Positions 1 through 12,019 of a stretch of DNA of 13,947 bases are shown here, piece after piece (position 1 is the stretch's first letter; each line of letters starts with the position of its first letter). The notes under the pieces are model-generated. The model was not told the DNA's origin and made no database searches. It was given only the letters and a program-made list of their open reading frames with translations. The translations under genes were made by a program, and so were the position numbers. The stretch is taken from the NCBI GenBank assembly GCA_038888155.1, contig JAWAJB010000023.1, positions 1 through 13,947 of the forward strand, in the 5' to 3' direction. This DNA comes from Desulfurococcaceae archaeon. Lineage in GTDB: Archaea > Thermoproteota > Thermoprotei_A > Sulfolobales > Desulfurococcaceae.

Positions 1-600
1 CGGCGTCAAACATCACCGTCGAAAGTAAGTCAAGATCGTTTATAAATTCTGTAAAATGATCTTTTCCAATCTTATTTTTCAGAATGTTGAGGTAGTTGCT
101 TCCCATAACCCTTTTAACAAACCCAACAACGTTTATCCCCTTATCATAACAATATCGTAATGCATCTACTCTCTCTTCAACATACCTTTCATCACCATAC
201 AGCGGCGGATCGATCACAGGGCCATCAATTAAGATGTAAGATTCACCTCCGCTTAACATGTTTGCCAATTTTCTGAGTGCTTTTATCTCTCCAAGCATCA
301 TAAGTACCTCTGATTCTTGGTTAACCGCTATTTCGTCCACACTCTCCAGCGGATCTATGCCTCCATCAACTTTTACTACAGGATGTAAGTATGAAAGTAT
401 TCTTGTGCTTCAGGTTTTTCGTCAACTCTTGAGGAGGGGATAACAAGCACTCCTAATACAAATTGACTAATAGCTGTGCTACCAAGAATTGCTCAGAAAC
501 CACCCTTAAGACGCCTTGAATCAATCATTTAGTTCACAAGAGACCACCCAACACTACTAATAGCGAATGACACATATTTTTGGTGCTTCATTCAACTTTC
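1..600 (-). pseudogene. NurA-like (RNase H-fold) nuclease gene, 5' part decayed, continues off the left edge
   Basis: Open frame 409 to the edge reads ...ESEVLMMLGEIKAL...YILIDGPVIDPP...INVVGFVKRVMGS...INDLDLL, matching NurA E, hhhDG and GhVKR motifs. Upstream (410-600) continuation is broken by a frameshift and in-frame stops (FAISSVGWSLVN*MIDSRRLKGGF*AILG). Absent from the ORF track. Confidence 0.6.
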
Positions 601-860
601 TATTTCCTCGCTGGTACTATATTGAGTATTAGGTTTCTTGTGAGGCAGGGCGGATACTGGGGGGAAGGGAAGAAAAATGGGGGATTTCTTGGAGTTTCCT
701 GAATGTGTAGGAAACGTTTTGTTTTATGAGTTTCGGTTCTTTGTGAAATTTAAGTTAGTGGTCTTTTACTGTGTGAGGAGAGGTAAATGGTTTCTTCAAT
801 TAAGGTTGATATTGTGATTTGGATGTGAAGATGGATGGGGTTGGAGATCCCCTCGATTTG

Positions 861-2078
861 TCATGAAGGTGGGTGGAGGGATCTTGTGTGGATAAATTCT
901 ACATTTTTTGGCTTGATTATGTTTATTACTGTTTTGAGCTCGTGTGGATAGTAGTGTCCCGAGACTCTCATCAGATATGCCTGCATATTCAGGTTGTTAA
1001 ACCAATTGGCTATGACTTCGTATTCCTGAGCTTCCTCAATTTTTGGTTCTGGCTCGCTTAGCACTGTTGCGGAGTCCCTTGGCAGGACGTGTGCATCCCT
1101 TAGGTCTCTTAAAACATCCACCGTTTCGTGGTAAGATGCAATTAAAACTGAGTTTTCTTCAATGTTTTCAAGGCTTACAGTCTCAAAATTTGACAATGTC
1201 TTTACGTAGTCGATGACAACTTTCGGCTCGGCTTGTATTCCTGCAACCACTTCCATGAGTTTGGAGACAGCCTCGGAAGCGATATACATGCTTTTCCCAG
1301 TTTGGAAGGACAGCCTGCTTAGGAGGAGGGCATACTCTAAGTCAAGCGGATGCATTGTTGCAACTATTAAGGTGTGCGCGTCAAATATCCTTTTAAGTAT
1401 TGCTTCTTCCTCGCCTGGCGAGATCGGAGCGCTAATTGAGCCCAAGTTGGTCCCCTCGATTATTAACTTATCGACTTTAATGTCCCTACTCTCGCTCAGG
1501 TATTCAAACATGCTTATTCCGCCATGAGCCTTCACAAACTCTTCTCCTTTTAGAAAGCCCTCAACTCTAAAGTCTCCGGTGTAGAGTATTGTTTCATCAC
1601 TTCCAAAGTATAAGAAGGCGTAAGCTGGGTGAGCACTATGTGATACTGGCAACGGCATAACGTCATTCTTGTCGGTTTCTAGAGGCTTAAGCTCCTCAAG
1701 CTCTACGTAATATTTTCTTGGAACCATGGAAAGCCACGTTGGCGAGTTGCACCACTTCTCCTCTAAAAATTTGTATATATTTAGGCTCGGCAAATAGACT
1801 TTGACTCTGCATGGGATGTTTGAGAGTAGGCCAAGATGGTCTAGGTGCATATGCGATATGTAAATAGCGCTGGCTTCTTCATACCACTCTGCCCTAGGCA
1901 CGGCGCCTATCTCCCTAAGCTCCCTTAAACCCCTGGGGGCTATGAAACCAGAGTAGAACCTTTTTATGATGTCGAACCTTATCCCCTGGTCGAATATTAG
2001 CGTTCGATCCCTGTCCTCTATTTTTACGAAGTTTCCGCCTATGCTCTTCGCCCCACTTAAGATCTCGACTTTAACCAT
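861..2078 (-). CDS. Metallo-beta-lactamase / beta-CASP (RNase J-like) nuclease, 405 aa
   Basis: SGAKSIGGN, DQG, ISHMHLDHLG (HxHxDH), VSHSA, YTGDFR, IIEGT, VSGH and FIHT motifs. Start moved from 2150 to ATG 2078 (MVKVEIL), with GGTGA upstream and an 8-nt overlap with the helicase stop. Confidence 0.88.
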   Translation of the reverse strand: MVKVEILSGAKSIGGNFVKIEDRDRTLIFDQGIRFDIIKRFYSGFIAPRGLRELREIGAVPRAEWYEEASAIYISHMHLDHLGLLSNIPCRVKVYLPSLNIYKFLEEKWCNSPTWLSMVPRKYYVELEELKPLETDKNDVMPLPVSHSAHPAYAFLYFGSDETILYTGDFRVEGFLKGEEFVKAHGGISMFEYLSESRDIKVDKLIIEGTNLGSISAPISPGEEEAILKRIFDAHTLIVATMHPLDLEYALLLSRLSFQTGKSMYIASEAVSKLMEVVAGIQAEPKVVIDYVKTLSNFETVSLENIEENSVLIASYHETVDVLRDLRDAHVLPRDSATVLSEPEPKIEEAQEYEVIANWFNNLNMQAYLMRVSGHYYPHELKTVINIIKPKNVEFIHTRSLHPPS

Positions 2079-5046
2079 GCGCGTTCTCACCACGTATACA
2101 TGTGTCTTGTTCTCTGGGCCATAGTACGTATCGCCTCTCAACTTTCTCAAAGATCTTCCAGTTCATTGTCTCCAGGGGGTTTCTGAACCTAAGAAGTTTT
2201 GGGGATCCGCTGTCAATATCGTATACTATATACAACCAGTAGTTCTCTTTCTCCTTCTTGGCGAGCTCAGCCTCGTCGTCTGTGAGTTCACCGTATATCT
2301 CTAGTCCGGCATGTCCCTTAACTTCGATCTTTCTAACATTGCCTGTCCTAGGGTCGATGCTCCTTATGTCGTAATGTTCGCTTGCTGGAACTGTTACAGC
2401 TATTCTCCCTTCATCTGTCTCAGTCTTTAGGGCGAACTTAACGGCTTCTTCCTCGACTCTTCGCTTAACATCCTCTGGCGGTTTAGCTGTCTCTCTGGGT
2501 AGCCCCGCAATAAACTTTATGCAGCCAAATGGCTCGGAGAATTCAAAGTTATAATTGCTCTCATTAGGCCATTTGTCCAGGTCTCTGAGACCTTCTCTCA
2601 CAAGGTTGTCTCTGTAGCTAGTTAGTGGAAAGAGCACGCTTCTTAAGGCGCTTCTAACATTAGAAACTATTAAGGCTTTAAGGTCGACTGGCAGACTTGG
2701 GTAACGTTCCTCGGAGACCCCAATACATCCAGAGAGGGCACTTGAGACTTCTGCGATTAGGTCCGCTCCTCTTAGAACCCTGCGGCTTTTATAGTAGACG
2801 CCTACTGGCTCGCTATAAACAGTGATGCCGTTACATGTCACCTTCAGGTTTAACAGCAGGAGCTCGTCCTCGCTTCCACCGAATGAAACAATGGTTGTTG
2901 TGGAGGACTTCTTGTAACGGAGAAGACCGAAGAAGTCGTCAAGAGTGTTTAAGGCTTTAGGCATCTCATGGCCGCGAGCGGCTCTGAGAGTGCCGTCCGT
3001 GCTTTCCTGAACAGTTAAGTCTAAGAGTGACGCCGCTCTCTTCACCAAACGTTTCAGCTCCTCCATAAACCCGGTGGAGTTTCTGAAGCCAAGTGCTTCT
3101 AGACTACTTTCAGCCTCTTCTCTGATTTTAGGCATGTATAGGACGTTTTTGCTTCTCAGCTCTCTCTCTATTTCACGCCTAGCAGCGATAATCTTTTCAA
3201 CAAGTTTTTCAAGGCCTCCTTTTCCTTCTTTGATAAAAGTTTGGATAGCCTTGTACTCGGTAACTCTCCTGAAAGCCTTTTTTTCCTTCTCTTTTTCAAG
3301 CACTACCTGAGGCGGTGCTTTGAAGATCCCCCCATCCTCACTGTACCATAAGACTACTTCGCCTGTAAATGGCCTCGGTTTAAGCTCTGCTCTTTTCAGA
3401 TTTATGAGTTTAACATACATGGAGTTTAGAGCCGCTTCGTCAGCGACATTATCTGTGAAGAGCGTGTATGCTTCAACGTCGTTCTTCTGTCCGAGCCTCC
3501 AGACACGACCTATTCTCTGCTCAAGCTTAATGAGGCTCCATGGAATCTCATAGTTGATAAGTATATTTGCGACCTGGAGATTAACGCCTTCGGCTACAAC
3601 GTCCGTCGCTATCAGAAGCCAAGCCTTTGGATCACTCTTAAACCTCTCCTTGATTTCTTGGAACGCCTTTTCATCGTGGGCTTCCTCAGAGCTTAACGTC
3701 AGAATGCTCCTCTTCCACTCGGGGCGCCTGCGCGTGAGCTGCTCAACTAAATATTTGAGGGTATCCCTGTACTCTGTGAAAATGACTGCCTTGAAGCCCT
3801 GCTCTGAAACCCACTCTAGGAGCTTGAAGAGCGCGTTAAGCTTAGTGTCGCATATCTCCATTATCTTCTTAGCAGTATCCCTGAGCACCTCTATCTTTGA
3901 GATGTCTTCGCCGCTGAGTAGGGGGGATGATTTCTCAAGAAACTCATTGAATATTTCGTCGGGATCCCTCTCTTCATACTCACACTCCTCGTAGCCGGCT
4001 CTAAAGAAGGATCGGACTGATTCAACGAGCTCCTTCAGCTCAGCCTCGTCGACTCCAGCTCTTCTGGCGAGGAGCCTCTGCATTGTAGTGTAGGCAGAAT
4101 AGGGGCTTGAGGAGGCCCTCTTAAAAACGAGGACTGTTAGGAGCGGGATAACCTCCTTGCTAATTAGCTCTCTCTCGTATGCGAGCTCAACGAGCTTGCT
4201 TCTTAAAAAGAGCACGAGATCCTCGATGAACTTATTCTCAAGGCTGCTTGCCTTAACTAGGCAGGCGTAGAATCTCGCCGGCGGAAATATGCGCCTTCTC
4301 TCATAGATGTTGTTGACGTCCTCCTTAGTTCTCCTGAAGAGTATTGCGCCGTGCGTAGCCTCATAGAAACGCTTAGTGTCAAGCTCCCTCCACCCGCCTA
4401 GGAAGGGATCGAGCAGTTTAAGTCTCTCAATATAGTCTCTGGCGTCCCCCCTATGGGGCGTTGCGGAGAGGAAAAGGACGTTCCTCTCTGGGTGGGCTTC
4501 AATTAGCTTCTTTCCGATGTTAAAGAACCTCTTAGTCTTGTAGCCTAACCTATGCGCTTCATCAACAATTATCAGGTCCCACGGTGCGTCGATAATCTTC
4601 TCAAGGTGCGCCTCTTTCTTCAAGAGGTCCATAGACGCAACGTAATATCCTTCTGGGAAGCCTTGCGCTTCAAGCCCGCGGATAGTCCACCTCTCCAGAT
4701 GATGTATCTTCAAGGTGGGTATACCCATTCTAAGAAGCTCTCTGCGCCACTGGTAGACGAGGACTCTAGGCACGACGATAAGGGTCCTCTTGACCCTACC
4801 GATAGCTTCAAGATACTTCGTGACAGCTATCACTGTAATAGTTTTGCCAAGGCCTATCTCATCCGCGATGAAAACTCTTACCGGCAACCTAGGAGCAAGC
4901 CGGGCGATGACCTCATGCTGGTGGAGATAGTGCTCCAGAGAATTCTCTCTCGAAATGTGGAGGAATGGTGCTATGAGCGGGTGAGTGCTGAAGCACTCCA
5001 GCAGGCCCGCAATTAAGCCTTGAACGACTTCCTTAAGGGATGGCAC
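2071..5046 (-). CDS. SNF2/HepA-family SF2 helicase fused to C-terminal DUF3883-type PD-(D/E)XK nuclease (991 aa)
   Basis: Motif I IADEIGLGKT, II DEAH, III LSATP, IV IFTEY, V TDVVAEGVNLQ, VI EQRIGRVWRLGQ. C-terminal VEEEAV...HYDIRS...IEVKG...YWLYIV nuclease signature. GTG start with G-rich SD. Confidence 0.92.
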   Translation of the reverse strand: MPSLKEVVQGLIAGLLECFSTHPLIAPFLHISRENSLEHYLHQHEVIARLAPRLPVRVFIADEIGLGKTITVIAVTKYLEAIGRVKRTLIVVPRVLVYQWRRELLRMGIPTLKIHHLERWTIRGLEAQGFPEGYYVASMDLLKKEAHLEKIIDAPWDLIIVDEAHRLGYKTKRFFNIGKKLIEAHPERNVLFLSATPHRGDARDYIERLKLLDPFLGGWRELDTKRFYEATHGAILFRRTKEDVNNIYERRRIFPPARFYACLVKASSLENKFIEDLVLFLRSKLVELAYERELISKEVIPLLTVLVFKRASSSPYSAYTTMQRLLARRAGVDEAELKELVESVRSFFRAGYEECEYEERDPDEIFNEFLEKSSPLLSGEDISKIEVLRDTAKKIMEICDTKLNALFKLLEWVSEQGFKAVIFTEYRDTLKYLVEQLTRRRPEWKRSILTLSSEEAHDEKAFQEIKERFKSDPKAWLLIATDVVAEGVNLQVANILINYEIPWSLIKLEQRIGRVWRLGQKNDVEAYTLFTDNVADEAALNSMYVKLINLKRAELKPRPFTGEVVLWYSEDGGIFKAPPQVVLEKEKEKKAFRRVTEYKAIQTFIKEGKGGLEKLVEKIIAARREIERELRSKNVLYMPKIREEAESSLEALGFRNSTGFMEELKRLVKRAASLLDLTVQESTDGTLRAARGHEMPKALNTLDDFFGLLRYKKSSTTTIVSFGGSEDELLLLNLKVTCNGITVYSEPVGVYYKSRRVLRGADLIAEVSSALSGCIGVSEERYPSLPVDLKALIVSNVRSALRSVLFPLTSYRDNLVREGLRDLDKWPNESNYNFEFSEPFGCIKFIAGLPRETAKPPEDVKRRVEEEAVKFALKTETDEGRIAVTVPASEHYDIRSIDPRTGNVRKIEVKGHAGLEIYGELTDDEAELAKKEKENYWLYIVYDIDSGSPKLLRFRNPLETMNWKIFEKVERRYVLWPREQDTCIRGENAHG

Positions 5047-5061
5047 ACCCCGTCCCCCCGC

Positions 5062-5480
5062 TTATCTTAGTCCAAATAGTTTTTAAAAGCCTTAACCGCC
5101 TTCATCAGCCTGCGGTATCATCTGCGCTCCCATACACATAGCCCCCCTGAAGCGCGACGCCCGGTGATACGCATCCCAACCCGGTCACTCTCTCTAATAA
5201 AACACATTAACTCAAAATCTTAGCGGAACTGGCGACGTTGGACAGGATTTCCACGTGGATTATTAACCTACTATATGGATTTATGTCCTGAGCGGTTATC
5301 ATTGAGTACACGGCCTCACAACTTAGTTCTCTAGCTAGACTGAGCAGCTCCCTTTAGGAGGAAATCTTGACTTCAGGTCCATTTTTCGCTTTCGACTGTT
5401 GGGCATAAAGACCAGTAGAACGCCACACTCTTCTGAGACAATCTCACAGTGAAGTAGCTTTTGGGCAGCTCGACCTGCAT
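5062..5480 (-). pseudogene. Decayed small accessory gene of the operon (position of DUF3780-like subunit)
   Basis: ATG at 5480 lies 1 nt after the ATPase stop (MQVELPKSYFTVRLS..., stop after 35 aa). Protein-like pieces continue in shifting frames: RELLSLARELSCEAVYSMIT...YSRLIIHVEIL, LLERVT, WDAYHRASRFRGA, YRRLMKAVKAFK, LFGLR* ending 15 nt before the helicase start. Confidence 0.6.
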
Positions 5481-5481
5481 G

Positions 5482-8400
5482 TTACGCTTCCCTCTTAACC
5501 CTCAGCTTGAAAGTAGCCTTATCCGCCAGGGCGTTGAACACTGATATTCTGTCCGCGTAAACTTCTATCGGCTCATCCATCTTTACTGAGACAAATGCCT
5601 CAGCTTGAAGGATCCTCGCTAAATCCGCTATCCTTTGAACTATGAGCTCCGAGATCTTAATGTCGGCGCTCGATCCATTTATAGTTATGTTGCCGCCGAT
5701 CCTTATGGAGAAGTCTGCTTTAGCCTTGGTGCCGAGTTGAGCAATCCTGCTTAGGGCGATCTGGGCGTGCGCTAAATCTCCCACGGAGACCTCGATGAGC
5801 TTGGCTCCAACATGCGTTAGATCCAGCCTCTTAACGGTGACTTCCTCCTCAAGGCTCCTCACATTTATAGAGAAGCTTCCCTCACGAGAGTATCCGTCCG
5901 CGCCCTTAGCTTCAACCCTAAGAGTGTGCCTTCCAGCAGGAAGCGGATCAATCCTCCACTTGGCGGTAAATGGCGGGCTTCCAGAAACGGGTTCAATAAT
6001 GCCTTTATCCGGCGTGAGCTCGACTCGCTCGCTATAACCTCCAATAGGCGTAATGGAGACTCTTACCTCGATGCTGTTGCCCTCATCAACCTCAACAATG
6101 CTCGGCTCAACGCTAATTATAAAGCCTCTTTCAATAGTTTCTTCGATTTCGCTGACTATGCCCTCCTTAAGAATCTCAACCCAGCCAGGTTGGCCGATTA
6201 GGTCTCTGAGCTTAAAGCGTTGTCCCTCAAACTCAACTTCATACCAAGTTATACGGAGTCTTCCGCCCTCAATAATCTGCCTCTCTTTTGAGAGAAGCAT
6301 GTTGGCGAACTCTCTAGCTGCGATGTTGAGAGGCAGTATTTCAGCGTCGTCTCTTAGGTGTGCCAAGATGTTCGGCTCTTTGCTTCCAATCTTCTTCCAG
6401 TACACCTCACCAGCCATCTTAACGCCAATGTCGAGCCTCCTCAGCCCCTCGCGGATAGCCTCCTCGACAACATCTCTCCTTGTGAACGGCGCGGCCGTGT
6501 TCGTGTAGAAGACCTCAAGTATCTTGCCGAACTCTATGGGCCTGTCTCCGCCAACTAAATCCCACTTCAGCAGCCTGCTGAAGAAGCTTGTGAGCTCGTC
6601 GAAGCTTATCCTTCTGCGCATCTTTGGGCCCGTTGATGAGTCCTCGAGGGCCGCCTCTGCCTGCGCTATGATGGCGCCCAGCGACGTCGTAACCACATAA
6701 TGGACAGTATCTCGCCCATCTTCCATTCTTGGGTAGGCAACACATGTCAAGGCGAAGAGCAGTTCGCTGTTAAACCTGTTTTCAATCTCCTGTATGTAGT
6801 GCCTTAGCTTCTCCTGCCTGATCTTCGCTAGCTCCTCGTCTCCGCGGAAGAACTCCTTCAGTTCACTGCTTATTTCCTTCGCAGCCTCTATCTTAGCGGC
6901 GTAACTGAGCATCTTCTCGAAGTCGGCTTCAACCTTCGGCAGAACTGCGGCGACAGTATTCCTATAGGTTCTCAAGCCTCCCTTAGACCCCAGTATTGCG
7001 TCTTCAACTTCCTTGTCAGATATGCTGTCCCTTGGTTTTACGAAGACTATTAGCTGGTACTCGGGCTTATCTTCTATTTTCGGAGGGCTATAGACTGAGG
7101 TGCCATACTCGATTATGTACGTCCTTTTCTCGCTGAAAAGGAATGGAGTCCACTCAAGGCGCTCGCCTCTCCTCGGCTTCCGAATGAGTAACTCTTCAGC
7201 TCTTTTCGCTAAGGCTTGGTAGAGGTTTAGGCGTGGGCCGCTGAGTATCTCGCTGGCCCTCTTTTCCACCAGGACTGTTATGGGGAGGTATGGGTCAAAC
7301 CAGTACCTGCCGTCCTGATAGTTGAAGTGGCTTAGGCGGGCAGGCATCTCATCTAGGATGCTCTTTATGTCTGGAGGCTGCAGTCCCTCTGAGGAGAATG
7401 TTTCCGGGTCATAAGTCATGAGCGCGGCATCCCTTAATGTCGGGAATGTTCTCAGAGGGATCTTAAACGTCTCGTAAGTGTATACTTTAAGCAGGATTGG
7501 CAGTGCTATTCTGAAGGCCAGCATCGGCCTGCTGCACTCAGCTATTAATCCAAGTCTTCCATCCTCGTCAACAACGTCCTTGGAGGCTACATCCCTAAAC
7601 TCCTTGCGGCTCTCGGTCAAAACCGAGTTCCTTATGTCTGGATCCCTTATGTCTATGTGCCACGGCATAATGAAGGTTGGATCTTCATTTCCCTTAAGGA
7701 GCTTCCTAACGACCTTCCTTGTTATCCTTATCGCATCCCTAGTCCTCCTGAGATCTCTGTTTCTTGAAATGAACTCCTGAAGAACCTCGATATACTTCGG
7801 ATGGAATGGGTAAGTATCCTTAGCCGAGAGAACTCTCCCAGATTCTTCAAGAGAGAACTGCCAGTCTGACTCAGAGCCGAAGATCTCGGGATAATCTCTA
7901 TATGTAGAGTGGAGTGCGTCCCTGGCTCTACTAGCCTCGTCTTCTGGGATCTCCTGGAAAATCCTTCGCTTAAGTATCTGAACTACATCCGTCGGAGTAA
8001 CTGGCGTGATGACTCTTGTAGTCTCCCTATGGAGTTCATCATATAATTTTTTAGCTAGGCCTGCATAGGTTTCTTCCTCAATTATTTGGTCTCCTCTACG
8101 CTCCATTTGGAGGGAGACAATCAGGGCAATTCCTGGGGTCCTTTCAACAGCCCTAGCTAAGTAGCCCATGAACATTATGAGGTTCTCGGCGTATCTTCTC
8201 AGCTCCTCAGCTCTGCTCACGGTGTATATATGCGGGAGTATCTCGTCGATCATTATTAGTACTGGCCTATTAGGCTCCTTTAGGACGCTCATTAGCACGT
8301 CTGTGAGCGGTGGGTGGGCGCCTAATTCGTCTAAGTGCATGACTTTAGCGTAGGTTCCAAGCCTATAAGCGAGCATACCCCACAGCGTCTTAATCGTAAG

Positions 8401-8835
8401 ATTGCCGACAACGTGTGGATCCTTCGGGGTTGGCGCCAACTCCCTCCTAGAACCATCTGTGACAACCACAAGCGGCCTTATTGCAGTCACTCTTGCCGCG
8501 AGCCGTTCATTAACCTTTTTCAGAGCTTCCGGCTTTGTGAACGCGTGGTATAGTGTGATCATAGCATGCGTCTTTCCCCCGCCATATAGCGATGTCAGCA
8601 GGAAGATTGCCCCACCCTCTTTGCTTTCTAGGGCACCGGCAACTTCACTTATTAGGTTCTCCATGGACTTGGTCATGTATGTCCTAGCGAAGAACTGGTC
8701 TGGATCTGAGTAAATTGGCTCTCCGCCTCCAACCACGTCGCCTAGATCTGGCGCGGCTTTATCATCAAGCGCCCTATTGAAGACGTCGGGCCAAACCTTA
8801 AGCTTTCCACTCTCATACAGGCTGAGCAGGCCCAT
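5482..8835 (-). CDS. DUF499-family P-loop ATPase (BrxC/PglY-related), ~1117 aa, C-terminal Ig-like domain
   Basis: YSDPDQFFARTYMT, Walker A LTSLYGGGKTH, Walker B LIMIDE, ILKRRIF, YPFHP and RRTRDAIR motifs typical of DUF499. Start moved from 9033 to ATG 8835 (MGLLSLY), which has GGGGTG upstream and overlaps the methylase stop by 23 nt. Confidence 0.88.
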   Translation of the reverse strand: MGLLSLYESGKLKVWPDVFNRALDDKAAPDLGDVVGGGEPIYSDPDQFFARTYMTKSMENLISEVAGALESKEGGAIFLLTSLYGGGKTHAMITLYHAFTKPEALKKVNERLAARVTAIRPLVVVTDGSRRELAPTPKDPHVVGNLTIKTLWGMLAYRLGTYAKVMHLDELGAHPPLTDVLMSVLKEPNRPVLIMIDEILPHIYTVSRAEELRRYAENLIMFMGYLARAVERTPGIALIVSLQMERRGDQIIEEETYAGLAKKLYDELHRETTRVITPVTPTDVVQILKRRIFQEIPEDEASRARDALHSTYRDYPEIFGSESDWQFSLEESGRVLSAKDTYPFHPKYIEVLQEFISRNRDLRRTRDAIRITRKVVRKLLKGNEDPTFIMPWHIDIRDPDIRNSVLTESRKEFRDVASKDVVDEDGRLGLIAECSRPMLAFRIALPILLKVYTYETFKIPLRTFPTLRDAALMTYDPETFSSEGLQPPDIKSILDEMPARLSHFNYQDGRYWFDPYLPITVLVEKRASEILSGPRLNLYQALAKRAEELLIRKPRRGERLEWTPFLFSEKRTYIIEYGTSVYSPPKIEDKPEYQLIVFVKPRDSISDKEVEDAILGSKGGLRTYRNTVAAVLPKVEADFEKMLSYAAKIEAAKEISSELKEFFRGDEELAKIRQEKLRHYIQEIENRFNSELLFALTCVAYPRMEDGRDTVHYVVTTSLGAIIAQAEAALEDSSTGPKMRRRISFDELTSFFSRLLKWDLVGGDRPIEFGKILEVFYTNTAAPFTRRDVVEEAIREGLRRLDIGVKMAGEVYWKKIGSKEPNILAHLRDDAEILPLNIAAREFANMLLSKERQIIEGGRLRITWYEVEFEGQRFKLRDLIGQPGWVEILKEGIVSEIEETIERGFIISVEPSIVEVDEGNSIEVRVSITPIGGYSERVELTPDKGIIEPVSGSPPFTAKWRIDPLPAGRHTLRVEAKGADGYSREGSFSINVRSLEEEVTVKRLDLTHVGAKLIEVSVGDLAHAQIALSRIAQLGTKAKADFSIRIGGNITINGSSADIKISELIVQRIADLARILQAEAFVSVKMDEPIEVYADRISVFNALADKATFKLRVKREA

Positions 8836-11806
8836 AATCATGCACCCCAAGCTGAAATGCTGGCGAAATAACCCTTTCGCAGAGGCGCCTCTCCGGATCA
8901 TCATCTGGCAGAACCCTAGAAAATATTCTTGCAAGGGAAAGTGCCTCATTAACCTGCTCCGGATAATTTTCGCGAAGCTTCTCAAGCCTACGCATATATT
9001 CAGCCGCGGAGTAAGCAGTCGCGTAGTACTCAAGCACGTGGAGCACGTCCACAGCGCATCTTACTTTGGGCTCCTCAGAAACACCGATGCCTCTGGCCTC
9101 AAGGAGCTCCGCAATTTTAGTCTTCTCCACAGAAAGCGGCTCAAGAAGAATGAGGGTCTTAGCCTTAGCCACCTTAGCGCCAGCCTCTTCTTTAACCTCC
9201 TTTAGCAGCTTCCATTCTTTTAAGGCCACTTTCACATCCAGCGATGTCCCTATAGAGAGGAGCCTGAGGTCTGTGCTCTCGATTATCTTCCTCCGCGCTC
9301 CGGCGATCAGGCATTTTGCGAGCATGTAGAACATAGCGTCTGGGCTCCTAACACCATCTTTAATCTCGGCTCTTCTGGCGAAGGCCTTTGCGAGACCTAT
9401 AGAGGCTGCCGGGTAAACGTAATCGTCAACGAGCTCGTCAACGCTGAGCCTACCAAGCGATATGACCTCCCTGTAGCTTGTTGCCGTTGTAAGGGCCGCT
9501 GCAAGCGTGTTTATGAAGAGGTCTCTTCCTGTGACTCCTAATTCTATGAGGCGCATAGCCCTCTCGGCGGCGGCCTCAATCATCTTATCATATAGCTTGG
9601 ATGCCTCTATGGCGCCAGAGGCACCTTTACGCCACACAACCACTATGCTAGTGTCCATTGAGAGCTTGCCTCGCTTAACAACGCTCTGAGCAGACTCGGT
9701 CGTTATCGGAAAAGCGTTGGTGACCCTTAAGCCAGCCGCCTCCCACCCAGCCTTAAGCAGAGCCTTCCAAGCGTCAGGATCAGTATGCGCATAATATGTC
9801 ACAAGCAAACCGCTATCCTCAAGCCTAGAGGCCATAGTAACGAATGAAGCATTCAGTAAATTCTGGAAGTGTCTAACTCCGTCTTCATATGTAGCTGACG
9901 CGCCGAGTCTGGGCGGATTAAGGCTAACCTCGCACAATGCATACTTCTCCCACTGCGTCGAAACCTCAATCCAGTTGTCGCCGACCTTCTCAAAGAAAGC
10001 TTCAGGTAGGAAGCGCGGAACAAGCCTACCATCTTCAACGTCGCTCAAAGCCCTCTTAAGCCAAACATAATAGAAGTCGCTAAGCTCAGCATAAGGAACA
10101 TCATCATAGTAAGGTGGATCGGTAATAGTCAAAGTGAATTTTTTATTAGGGCCTATCTTTCCTAAAACAGTTGCATCTTCTAACGAAACATTAACTTTAA
10201 TAGAAGATTGTTTGTTAACATCTGAGGTGAGATACGTTAAACTGCGAATAATAGCGCTAAACGATTTTCTCCAGGAGCCAGCTAATTCTTTAAAGGGATT
10301 TGCGTCAACCCAATTCCATTGCATCGCTATACCTCTCTCAGACATACTTTCGCCTATTTTAATCCACACTCCATCCCATCTATTCACTACAGAATTGAGG
10401 TAAGTGAGTTTGCATAGCGCTATTGTCAAGTACACTATTATTGCTTCTACGTATTGTTGTGTTTCTTCTTTAGTGCACCTTTCTTTCAGCACCGCTTCTT
10501 CGATTTTCTTGCCCGCCTCGCGTATTAGTTTGACGAGTCTGACGAGTGTTAAAAGCTGACGAGGATTAAACAGCTTATAGAACTTATTAAATCCCCAAAT
10601 CCATATACTTAGACAACCTCCACCGCTAGCAGTATAGCACCATAAATTCTCTATAGGTATGTCTGGATCGCCTTCTTTTAGCATTTTTTCTATTTCTTTT
10701 TTTGCTAGTTCGAGTTTTTGTTGGTCTTTTTGTGTGCATGGCTCGAACTCTAGGTCGCCGTTTTTTACTTTCACTTTTACGAGTAGCTTTTGTCTTGCTA
10801 GGGGTGTTATGTCTTCTTGTTCTAGGCTTTGGTTGTAAGTTTTTATGGCATGTTTCACGTAGCCTTCGAGTCTCTCTTTGACTTCTTTAGGTAGATTCTT
10901 TTTTTCGGTGTAGTGTCTTCCAGTCTGAGGATCCACTTGCATTATTGGCTGGTGGCAGAGTAGGCAGACGGCTTTTTCGCTTCGTGCGTTGATGTTGCTT
11001 TCTGGGACTCTGAACTTCTTATCGTTGATTAGAATTGTTGAGCCGGAGACTTTTGCGCCGTTAACTGCTTTGTCTCCTAATTTTTTGTTTAAGTCGACAA
11101 CCTTGATTTTGACTTCTTCGCCTTCTACTACGGGTTCCATCCATGCCAGCCGCTCGTAGCTGTTTTTGTTTTTGACTCTTGCAAGCCACCAGTTTCCGAC
11201 GAGTGGGGTCCAGCGTTCGCAGTGGGGGCACTTGATCTCCCATGAACCTATGTAGACGGCTACGTCCTCATCGTAAAGCTCTCTTATAAGGGGGTCTTCT
11301 TTGAGCCGTTCGGTGACCCATTTCCCCCAGCGTTCCACATCTTCCACGAGTTTTCTGCCGTATTTTGCTGGGTACTCTAGCACGGCCTTGAGGAAGATGT
11401 AGGCTGTTGGGAGGAGTTCGACGGCGGTTGTGTTTAGTCCTAGGCGTATTGCTTCAAGTGGTATGGAGCCGAATCCGGCGAAGGGGTCGAGTAGTTTGAT
11501 TCCATTAAACCTGTATGACGGGGGGTTGTTGTGTGCGGACTTTTTCTTGCCGCTTATCCCGATACCTCTTAGGAAGGTGCTTGGGCTTGTGTCCTCGGGA
11601 AGAAGGCAGCCTGCAATGATTGCTCTGGCGGAGATGAGTGGCTTCCTAGTCCACCAGAAGACCATTTCCCAGTGGGGTGGCCTTCCAGGCCCCTTCTCAA
11701 CGCTTGAAGCCTCGCTAACTTTGTCCCAGGGGAACTTGTAGGACTCTATAAATGCTTTAGGTGGAACCCCAGTAGTTTCATCGATTAGCTTGGTTTGTCC
11801 ATTCAA
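8813..11806 (-). CDS. DUF1156-family N6-adenine DNA methyltransferase with Zn-ribbon insertion (997 aa)
   Basis: N-terminal WWTRKPL (DUF1156 WWARRP-like), SAM-binding motif I DPFAGFGSIP (~11460-11488), CPHC (11219-11230) and CLLC (10955-10966) cysteine pairs, catalytic TDPPYY (DPPY 10109-10120) followed by YAELSDFYYVWLKR. TTG start preceded by SD-like GGAGGGAGTGA. Confidence 0.92.
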   Translation of the reverse strand: MNGQTKLIDETTGVPPKAFIESYKFPWDKVSEASSVEKGPGRPPHWEMVFWWTRKPLISARAIIAGCLLPEDTSPSTFLRGIGISGKKKSAHNNPPSYRFNGIKLLDPFAGFGSIPLEAIRLGLNTTAVELLPTAYIFLKAVLEYPAKYGRKLVEDVERWGKWVTERLKEDPLIRELYDEDVAVYIGSWEIKCPHCERWTPLVGNWWLARVKNKNSYERLAWMEPVVEGEEVKIKVVDLNKKLGDKAVNGAKVSGSTILINDKKFRVPESNINARSEKAVCLLCHQPIMQVDPQTGRHYTEKKNLPKEVKERLEGYVKHAIKTYNQSLEQEDITPLARQKLLVKVKVKNGDLEFEPCTQKDQQKLELAKKEIEKMLKEGDPDIPIENLWCYTASGGGCLSIWIWGFNKFYKLFNPRQLLTLVRLVKLIREAGKKIEEAVLKERCTKEETQQYVEAIIVYLTIALCKLTYLNSVVNRWDGVWIKIGESMSERGIAMQWNWVDANPFKELAGSWRKSFSAIIRSLTYLTSDVNKQSSIKVNVSLEDATVLGKIGPNKKFTLTITDPPYYDDVPYAELSDFYYVWLKRALSDVEDGRLVPRFLPEAFFEKVGDNWIEVSTQWEKYALCEVSLNPPRLGASATYEDGVRHFQNLLNASFVTMASRLEDSGLLVTYYAHTDPDAWKALLKAGWEAAGLRVTNAFPITTESAQSVVKRGKLSMDTSIVVVWRKGASGAIEASKLYDKMIEAAAERAMRLIELGVTGRDLFINTLAAALTTATSYREVISLGRLSVDELVDDYVYPAASIGLAKAFARRAEIKDGVRSPDAMFYMLAKCLIAGARRKIIESTDLRLLSIGTSLDVKVALKEWKLLKEVKEEAGAKVAKAKTLILLEPLSVEKTKIAELLEARGIGVSEEPKVRCAVDVLHVLEYYATAYSAAEYMRRLEKLRENYPEQVNEALSLARIFSRVLPDDDPERRLCERVISPAFQLGVHDYGPAQPV

Positions 11807-11809
11807 AAA

Positions 11810-12019
11810 TCACTCCCTCCAACTCTCCTTATAACGGTACCAATTTAACAGTTTGACTGACGCTATCAGCTTGTCATTTCCAACTATACTCTTGTATTTG
11901 GCATAATTTTGGGGAGAATTAATTTCGGCGTTAGAATGCCTATATTTACTCATAGTCAGGCACCATATTGTTGAAGTTGTTATGTGCGCGTATTTAAACT
12001 TAATTTTTTGATAATTCAT
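11810..12019 (-). CDS. Small hypothetical ORF or 3' remnant of a gene upstream of the methyltransferase (69 aa)
   Basis: Its stop sits within the methylase SD, 3 nt before the TTG start, and a TATA-like element lies 20-27 nt upstream of its ATG. No recognisable family. Confidence 0.3.
   Translation of the reverse strand: MNYQKIKFKYAHITTSTIWCLTMSKYRHSNAEINSPQNYAKYKSIVGNDKLIASVKLLNWYRYKESWRE

Follow-up and report, generated by a model that had tools for sequence, protein, structure and literature searches.

We analysed a 13,947-bp contig (JAWAJB010000023.1 of the Desulfurococcaceae archaeon assembly GCA_038888155.1), hereafter the window, by which we mean this whole stretch of DNA, which is one of the 134 contigs of a 2.42-Mb metagenome bin and carries on its minus strand a putative defence operon (positions 861-11806). 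Our listing of open reading frames (ORFs) bears out the layout given in an original prediction made from the letters of the DNA, namely, four large, intact and co-oriented ORFs and one wrecked small gene. In the order of transcription, these are a DUF1156-type N6-adenine DNA methyltransferase (MTase) with a zinc-ribbon insert (8813..11806, 997 amino acids (aa)), a DUF499 AAA+ ATPase (5482..8835, 1117 aa from the ATG at 8835), a pseudogene of a small partner protein of ~140 aa belonging to an unannotated, weakly DUF7680-like family (5067..5480), an SNF2 helicase without an N-terminal extension that is fused to a C-terminal PD-(D/E)XK nuclease of the NOV_C/DUF3883 type (2071..5046, 991 aa), and an RNase J-like beta-CASP metallo-beta-lactamase (MBL) nuclease (861..2078, 405 aa). 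The operon consists on its strand of these five genes only, with no other ORF of at least 60 aa. The predicted 23-nt overlap between the MTase and DUF499 genes, the 1-nt gap between the DUF499 gene and the small gene (stop 5482-5484; ATG at 5480) and the 8-nt overlap between the SNF2 and MBL genes (ATGGTTAA) all stand. However, the predicted 15-nt gap behind the small gene was measured from a TAA in another frame (5062-5064), whereas the frame matching the C-terminus of the homologues ends at 5067-5069, leaving 20 nt before the GTG of the SNF2 gene at 5046. The catalytic motifs could be located in all four large ORFs, as had been claimed, and the proposed gene identities are confirmed by Pfam, PADLOC and NCBIfam. 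Since the same gene order is seen in dozens of loci from various archaeal lineages, the arrangement is not due to chance.

The MTase matches Pfam DUF1156 (PF06634) with 40.8 bits against a gathering score of 24, and the PADLOC models MTase_II (PDLC03352) and HmaB with 862.5 and 179.7 bits, respectively, while its score of 123.2 bits for the NCBIfam model DUF1156_antiphage lies under the cut-off of 1000. It carries the motif DPFAGFGS (FxGxG type) at aa 107-114 and DPPY at aa 563-566, together with CPHC and CLLC, and we assign it as a predicted gamma-type N6-adenine methyltransferase. Contigs of the community break in the middle of this gene (window 9200-10700), where the joints skip 1491, 367 and 76 nt, the depth spikes to ~200-860x in one run, and the G+C content falls to 0.40; the breaks suggest that the gene occurs as several alleles, or alongside related methyltransferases, with differences in the region of the target-recognition insert. 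In one related locus (L027, 1-4991), two divergently oriented DUF1156 methyltransferase genes lie upstream of the DUF499 gene. The DUF499 protein matches its Pfam family (PF04465) with 772.8 bits over profile positions 3-1022 of 1024, and contains the Walker A motif GGGKTH and the Walker B motif LIMIDE. Its matches to HmaC (147.8 bits) and to the PADLOC Gao-type DUF499 model (95.7 bits) are both confined to the N-terminal ~400 aa, and the 117.7 bits for NCBIfam DUF499_antiphage are under the cut-off of 1200. The last 270 aa are modelled by AlphaFold2 with a predicted local distance difference test (pLDDT) score of 93.5, and the Foldseek matches of this part are immunoglobulin-like sandwiches. 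The protein is an ORC/Cdc6-like ATPase with C-terminal beta-sandwich and RRM-like domains.

The SNF2 protein has Pfam matches to SNF2-rel_dom (61.7 bits), Helicase_C (71 bits) and ResIII (from aa 41), followed by NOV_C (53.3 bits) at aa 865-950. Its match to HmaA (191.8 bits) begins at profile position 99. We located motif I (GLGKT, aa 65-69), DEAH and QRIGRVWRLGQ in the helicase part, and D893...E908-V-K910 in the nuclease part; GLGKT, DEAH and D893/E908/K910 are kept in at least 90% of 24 homologues. No phospholipase D (PLD) domain was found in this helicase, as Pfam gives no PLDc match and NF042964 aligns only to residues 303-537. The NOV_C domain of HmaA has been described as a nickase essential for defence (PMC11232893).

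Beta-CASP enzymes are characterized by the MBL motifs 1-4 (D, HxHxDH, H and D) and the motifs A (acidic), B (His) and C (His). The last protein of the operon displays FDQG, HMHLDH, VSHS, TGDFR, IEGTN, SGHY and IHT in these places, and the seven motifs are invariant in all 18 operon-linked homologues (D30, H76/H78/D80/H81, H147, D169, E208, H375 and H397). The family models place it only loosely: Lactamase_B_2 of Pfam gives 20.6 bits, under the gathering score, and the NCBIfam RNase J model (TIGR00649) gives 35 bits against a cut-off of 400. RNase J is also the top NCBIfam match of four other operon MBLs (51-71 bits) and of eight paralogues outside such operons (82-131 bits). When a profile of the family was compared with solved structures, the top match was an uncharacterised Enterococcus protein (PDB 2az4, 7e-25), followed by archaeal RNase J (5ws2, 3e-19) and, more weakly, bacterial RNase J, and then by CPSF73 (1e-7) and Apollo/Artemis (5e-7 and weaker). 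We therefore consider the protein a predicted beta-CASP enzyme of the RNase J branch with a complete active site, and not a curated RNase J, since the RNase J scores are far under the 400-bit cut-off. No PADLOC family was found for five of these MBL proteins. A search of plasmid records returned one distant bacterial MBL with 25.5% identity, and a search of phage records returned none.

The original prediction depended on the trailing MBL gene being conserved beside homologous operons, which is what we found. A first DUF499-based scan over one genome per species yielded 13 loci, from Thermoproteota, Korarchaeia, Bathyarchaeia and Methanomethylicia bins and one bacterium. A second scan covered 401 genomes of the phylum of the window, 46 of which have a DUF499 match at E ≤ 1e-20, and the DNA around the strong matches was taken. 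Counting only DUF499-ascertained loci that contain the SNF2-nuclease gene and DNA downstream of it, and removing three duplicates, left 23 loci. An intact MBL gene directly follows the SNF2-nuclease gene in 15 of them, a remnant or broken copy is present in three (L006, L009 and L035; thus 18/23 with an MBL gene or its remnant), and the gene is absent in five (L004, L012, L023, L029 and L031). Two further loci (L028 and L030) have neither an SNF2 gene nor an MBL gene. Loci found with the MBL as the query are a biased sample and were counted apart. They comprise three intact SNF2-MBL pairs (L037, L039 and L055, the last being an IMG/VR contig), two broken copies (L038 and L040), one relic (L036) and one fragment at a contig end (L041). 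The relic (G158:C2, 1924-3582) is 73% identical, lacks the first 14 residues and is fused in frame behind a fragment of a major facilitator superfamily transporter with no operon around it, and looks like the product of a deletion. In L038 (G334:C6, 2864-4112), whose SNF2 protein is the nearest relative of that in the window (71% identity), the MBL gene is full of stop codons. This locus mirrors the window, where it is the small gene that is dead.

The phylogenetic tree of the MBL proteins contains a branch with 100% support that parts the 18 operon-linked sequences from 10 RNase J-like paralogues of the same phylum encoded elsewhere, in unrelated neighbourhoods without any gene of the operon. 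Moreover, the pairwise distances of the MBL and SNF2 proteins are correlated over 17 loci with r = 0.96, a value as high as this being reached in none of 5000 permutations, and the two trees have groupings in common. The MBL gene has thus been inherited with the helicase-nuclease gene as one unit. Every deep clade of the SNF2 tree includes an intact MBL gene, and the seven loci where it is absent or broken are spread over the tree one by one. The gene is thus ancestral in this clade, but it can be dispensed with, as it has been lost or has decayed on at least seven occasions. None of the 16 other genomes of the family to which the window belongs yielded an MBL relative at E ≤ 1e-5. One could suppose that the MBL is a housekeeping RNA-processing gene of the RNase J or aCPSF2 type that merely adjoins the operon, as relatives are automatically annotated as 'ribonuclease J' or 'MBL fold metallo-hydrolase' and RNase J-like matches at E ≤ 1e-5 are widespread in the phylum (130/401 genomes). 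However, the overlap of 8 nt with the helicase gene, the same position in many lineages, the separate clade, the co-divergence with the helicase and the placement of the 10 paralogues outside operon contexts make this supposition highly improbable.

Homologous pieces of the small gene in the window lie in three frames, separated by at least three frame changes and interrupted by at least two in-frame stops, i.e., at least five disabling lesions, and the invariant Trp of the family reads Arg. The gene is a true pseudogene. An artefact of assembly or sequencing that conceals an intact gene was considered, as the window comes from a metagenome bin and was compared with assembled contigs only, not with raw DNA reads. 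However, the stretch is letter-identical in contigs of X1 (3524-5826), X2 (1-5818) and X3 (5119-5342), three hot-spring metagenome runs of two studies, although at least one of them may be the window's own source; the lesions are multiple and include the substitution at the invariant Trp, and no lesion lies in the 10.5 kb of coding sequence on either side, so that we give an artefact very little credence. On the other hand, an intact small ORF of ~135-160 aa directly follows the DUF499 gene in all 25 distinct related loci, where it was recognised by a hidden Markov model built from close members (E 4e-76 to 3e-3). A search of the bin assembly for a second copy found none; it was run without a positive control and is accordingly weak.

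The small proteins form a family of 204 relatives at 90% clustering, with no Pfam domain in the 120 listed. In a set of 1.84 billion proteins, the family has 111 representatives at 50% clustering, practically all of them stand-alone proteins of ~130-170 aa. Desulfurococcus amylolyticus and Ignisphaera sp. are among the carriers of the family that have been cultivated. No Pfam or NCBIfam name was found for it, and PADLOC returned only noise for four members. An identification of the small gene with DUF3780 is not supported by Pfam, as PF12635 (DUF3780) matches none of the 4, 25 and 107 family members searched. PF12635 was also found in none of the 401 genomes of the phylum, which is uninformative since the control genomes were equally silent. 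The predicted model of the small protein (pLDDT 88) has a four-stranded sheet and five helices, the same count of elements as given for DUF3780 (PMC12839542), a likeness by verbal description only. Against the PDB, Foldseek found nothing for this model at E < 0.6; the highest Z obtained with VIA-align over 48,161 chains was 6.0, which the tool itself counts as noise; the family profile had one match among PDB sequences (E 0.59), and a search of the ESM Atlas gave no usable match. The closest named family is DUF7680 (PF24728, gathering score 24 bits), which is matched by one of 107 representatives at 24.4 bits, with two others at 16.6 and 19.8 bits, and by two of the 25 small proteins at E up to 0.12. 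In hhalign the two families give a probability of 1.2% and an E-value of 0.042, in a collinear alignment that pairs the invariant Trp, which lies in an [FY]W..S motif common to both. We therefore call the family 'DUF7680-like' as a weak lead, not a finding.

A DUF7680 gene stands directly after a more distant DUF499 gene in three genomes of the phylum (L056, L057 and L058). The DUF1156 MTase gene is placed divergently in all three, and the helicases of L056 and L058 have an N-terminal PLD domain (PLDc_2 match), the arrangement of Type-2 BR (Gao) systems. These loci point to DUF7680 as the archaeal gene that stands where DUF3780 would be, which seems to have gone unremarked; our full-text literature search for DUF7680 found no paper mentioning the name. 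In two loci from the window's own family (L028, 5072-8081 and L030, 1826-8106), the MTase, DUF499 and small genes are followed by genes for McrB-like AAA_5 ATPases and unannotated partners of ~440 aa. The McrB-like genes match McrB of the PDB at 1e-6, have an N-terminal domain like 6n0s (8e-39) and, in one copy, a weak EVE match, and they may represent either a swap of the effector or a separate, adjacent type IV system.

Taken together, the locus is probably an archaeal representative, with five genes, of the DUF499-centred, BREX-related (BR; BREX, bacteriophage exclusion), Hma-like, restriction-modification (RM)-like defence systems. The identities of the genes are read from the sequence, and from them we infer a division of labour among the products. 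The methyltransferase would mark the host DNA. The DUF499 ATPase, with its variable C-terminal domains and probably together with the small protein, would sense, license or assemble. The SNF2-nuclease would translocate on unmarked DNA and nick or cut it, by analogy with HmaA. The beta-CASP enzyme, being translationally coupled, would act as a second nuclease, its most likely task being to degrade the invader in the 5'-3' direction once this has been nicked or cut. We favour this role in view of the coupling of the enzyme to a DNA motor-nickase.

Several points weigh against this reading. First, the window operon may no longer restrict, because a core small gene is dead in it. As the small gene is dead and the other four are kept, either the system works without the small protein or it has recently lost restriction while keeping methylation. 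Accordingly, the window copy might be a decaying or rewired relic whose restriction is off and which persists mainly as a methyltransferase with accessory genes. That the small gene is intact in every related locus and carries at least five disabling lesions here would fit such a relic, as would the absence of a match to a second copy anywhere in the assembly by the weak search described above, and the broken MBL gene of the nearest relative, L038, tells that piecemeal decay occurs in the lineage. However, the four large ORFs, 10.5 kb in total, have no lesion where ~126 would be expected at the lesion density of the small gene, and the same haplotype is found in contigs of three runs from two studies. 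The variant sites in related contigs are synonymous in 16 of 18 cases in the MTase gene, and in 21 against 3 in the MTase and DUF499 genes together, a ratio that concerns these two genes only, since no variant at all was seen in the SNF2 and MBL genes. The MTase and ATPase genes are thus under purifying selection, and the large genes are maintained without the small one; we consider a relic unlikely, if far from negligible.

Second, RNA is at least as plausible a target of the MBL as DNA, since its nearest solved or curated relatives are ribonucleases (RNase J and CPSF73), with Apollo and Artemis further away. The beta-CASP enzyme might then be an RNase that, after the response at the DNA level has been triggered, degrades transcripts, either as a back-up or to bring about abortive infection. 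RNase J is the best curated family of the operon members (35-71 bits) and, with CPSF73, supplies the best characterised solved relatives. There are also two precedents: fusions of a HEPN RNase to DUF499 are reported from 1370 taxa and occur in many bacterial Type-1 BR systems (PMC12839542), and Cas14 is the beta-CASP ribonuclease effector of type VII CRISPR-Cas (PMC13069675). However, all of the scores are far under the RNase J cut-off, the operon clade stands apart from the RNase J-like paralogues, the matches include Apollo and Artemis, which are DNA nucleases (5e-7), and the tight coupling is to a DNA translocase-nickase. We regard an RNase role as a serious rival, if the less likely one. 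Third, the MBL gene is missing or decayed in 8 of the 23 DUF499-ascertained loci, and is therefore not essential. Finally, the bin (G000) may be mixed: at 2.42 Mb it is about twice the size of its congeners (12 genomes of the same genus, 0.9-1.5 Mb) and has a contamination of 6.43%, so that the host of the contig is uncertain.

Beyond the DUF499-centred defence system that we prefer, we tentatively raise a narrower possibility, which we would not yet bet on, that the clade is a distinct and mainly archaeal BR subtype which the existing classifications do not set apart. It would have five ancestral genes and be characterized by two components so far unrecognised, a DUF7680-like subunit and a dedicated beta-CASP enzyme that makes up a two-enzyme effector with the SNF2-nickase. 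The small subunit would then travel with the MTase-DUF499 core for sensing and modifying, even where McrB-like genes replace the SNF2-nuclease, while the translocase-nickase would open the invader and the RNase J-like 5'-3' exonuclease would resect it. If this is true, restriction would proceed by nicking and degrading rather than by double-strand cleavage. The DUF499/Hma/BR systems, whose mechanism is unsolved, rank with the most widespread RM-like defences, and only their helicase-nuclease has been tested, in a bacterium only. The beta-CASP enzyme offers a second catalytic activity to study in them, the small protein is a candidate adaptor, and the natural losses (of the small gene in the window and of the MBL gene elsewhere) provide a ready-made deletion series. 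Furthermore, type VII CRISPR-Cas would be joined by a second system of prokaryotic immunity that has recruited a beta-CASP enzyme.

As for the DNA around the operon, the sequence TTATAA (11829..11834, minus strand), 22 nt 5' of the MTase start codon, may be taken, with low confidence, as a candidate for a TATA-like box of the archaeal kind. Upstream of the operon, the 2.1 kb up to the end of the contig (window 11807-13947) has no ORF longer than ~70 aa and shows a strong T/G skew on the plus strand; no match to it was found in 20 related genomes (12 of the same genus), no Rfam family was matched and no repeats were detected. A partial ORF at the contig end (13760-13945, plus strand) resembles a MazE/AbrB-type antitoxin, with 23.4 bits against a gathering score of 24.7. 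Downstream of the operon and co-oriented with it, a partial ORF (2-340, minus strand) encodes a NurA nuclease domain (Pfam, 37.5 bits), which tblastn did not find beside the operon in other loci.

The core triad of the operon has been described before, as an RM-like system with HEPN-DUF499 (PMC3710099), as Hma (PMC8565338), and by Bell et al. in 2020 as an archaeal operon of COG1743, DUF499, SNF2-nuclease and EVE genes (PMC7641849). Three types of DUF499-centred BR systems have been distinguished, for which an RM-like model was proposed (PMC12839542); the same source states that DUF499 is related to BrxC of BREX, as we had been led to expect. The auxiliary nucleases that it reports with BR systems are HNH, HKD, PD-(D/E)XK, TOPRIM/OLD, HEPN, PIN and Schlafen, and the words lactamase, MBL, beta-CASP, RNase J, CPSF and Artemis are absent from its main text. 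The MBL is likewise not mentioned in the Hma-embedding preprint, full-text searches (DUF499/DUF1156, Hma, COG1483/COG1743, and DUF499 with lactamase) found no description of the five-gene form, and a search for beta-CASP with 'defense island' found none either. Hence the original prediction of an undescribed form holds for the two extra genes but not for the MTase-DUF499-SNF2-nuclease core, which was already in Bell et al.; within the literature searched, the core triad is known, and the conserved small gene and the beta-CASP gene are new. That no existing model covers all five genes was also correct, since PADLOC v2 has no match for the MBL or the small protein, and annotation pipelines (PADLOC and NCBIfam) currently leave these two genes unnamed.

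The window contains the whole BR core triad, namely, a DUF499 ATPase, a DUF1156 N6-MTase in the same operon and a Swi2/Snf2 helicase. The bacterial 'restriction-like' system had been proposed as its closest form, a view that has to be abandoned, because the helicase has a C-terminal PD-(D/E)XK domain and no PLD domain, like that of Hma, i.e., Type-1 BR. With Hma it shares DUF499, a DUF1156 N6-MTase and an SNF2 helicase with a C-terminal PD-(D/E)XK (NOV_C/DUF3883) domain, and the Hma models of PADLOC are its best system-specific matches (148-192 bits). However, these matches are partial: the window helicase lacks the first ~98 positions of the HmaA profile, and its DUF499 protein, a full-length match to Pfam DUF499, matches HmaC in the ATPase region only. 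Type-1 helicases are described with an N-terminal TUDOR domain (PMC12839542), which the window helicase appears to lack, and the three-gene organisation of Hma differs from that of the window clade, where a small partner and a beta-CASP enzyme are two further conserved genes. The 'restriction-like' system of Gao, or Type-2 BR (DUF499, DUF3780, DUF1156 and PLD/HKD-helicase), resembles the window in having a stand-alone small gene beside DUF499, a helicase without the N-terminal TUDOR region, and a DUF499 tail of beta-sandwich and RRM-like domains, as described for about half of Type-2 ATPases (PMC12839542). On the other hand, the window has no DUF3780 match and no PLD domain, its helicase having the C-terminal PD-(D/E)XK domain instead, and both NCBIfam equivalogs (DUF1156_antiphage and DUF499_antiphage) score far under their cut-offs; in addition, the PLD-helicase loci of the phylum have DUF7680 after DUF499, to which the small family of the window is weakly similar. 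Type-3 BR systems differ as well, with PglZ and inactive-STAND genes and a helicase without a nuclease, whereas the window has no PglZ match and a helicase with a nuclease.

The archaeal operon of Bell et al., the earliest account of this core among those consulted, agrees with ours in the order of the three large genes and in its archaeal distribution, but ends with a stand-alone EVE gene, of which the window operon has none, and neither a small gene nor a beta-CASP gene is mentioned in the portion of that text available to us (PMC7641849). Two other systems offer parallels for the beta-CASP enzyme. Cas14 is likewise a beta-CASP/MBL nuclease recruited, mainly in archaea, as the cutting enzyme of a defence system; however, it is RNA-guided, has ~600 aa and belongs to another beta-CASP lineage, and its model NF045584 gave no match to the operon MBLs and only weak matches to two paralogues outside the operons. 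Archaeal RNase J with ASH-Ski2 is likewise a pair in which a 5'-3' beta-CASP exonuclease of the RNase J type works with an SF2 helicase, but is described as a housekeeping RNA-decay pair that is not operon-linked to a methyltransferase (PMC7144898), and the operon MBLs form a clade of their own. The window clade thus mixes features of the described types, combining a Type-1-like fusion of helicase and restriction endonuclease, devoid of the N-terminal region, with a Type-2-like small gene and DUF499 tail, and adding a beta-CASP gene that belongs to neither Type-1 nor Type-2 BR systems.

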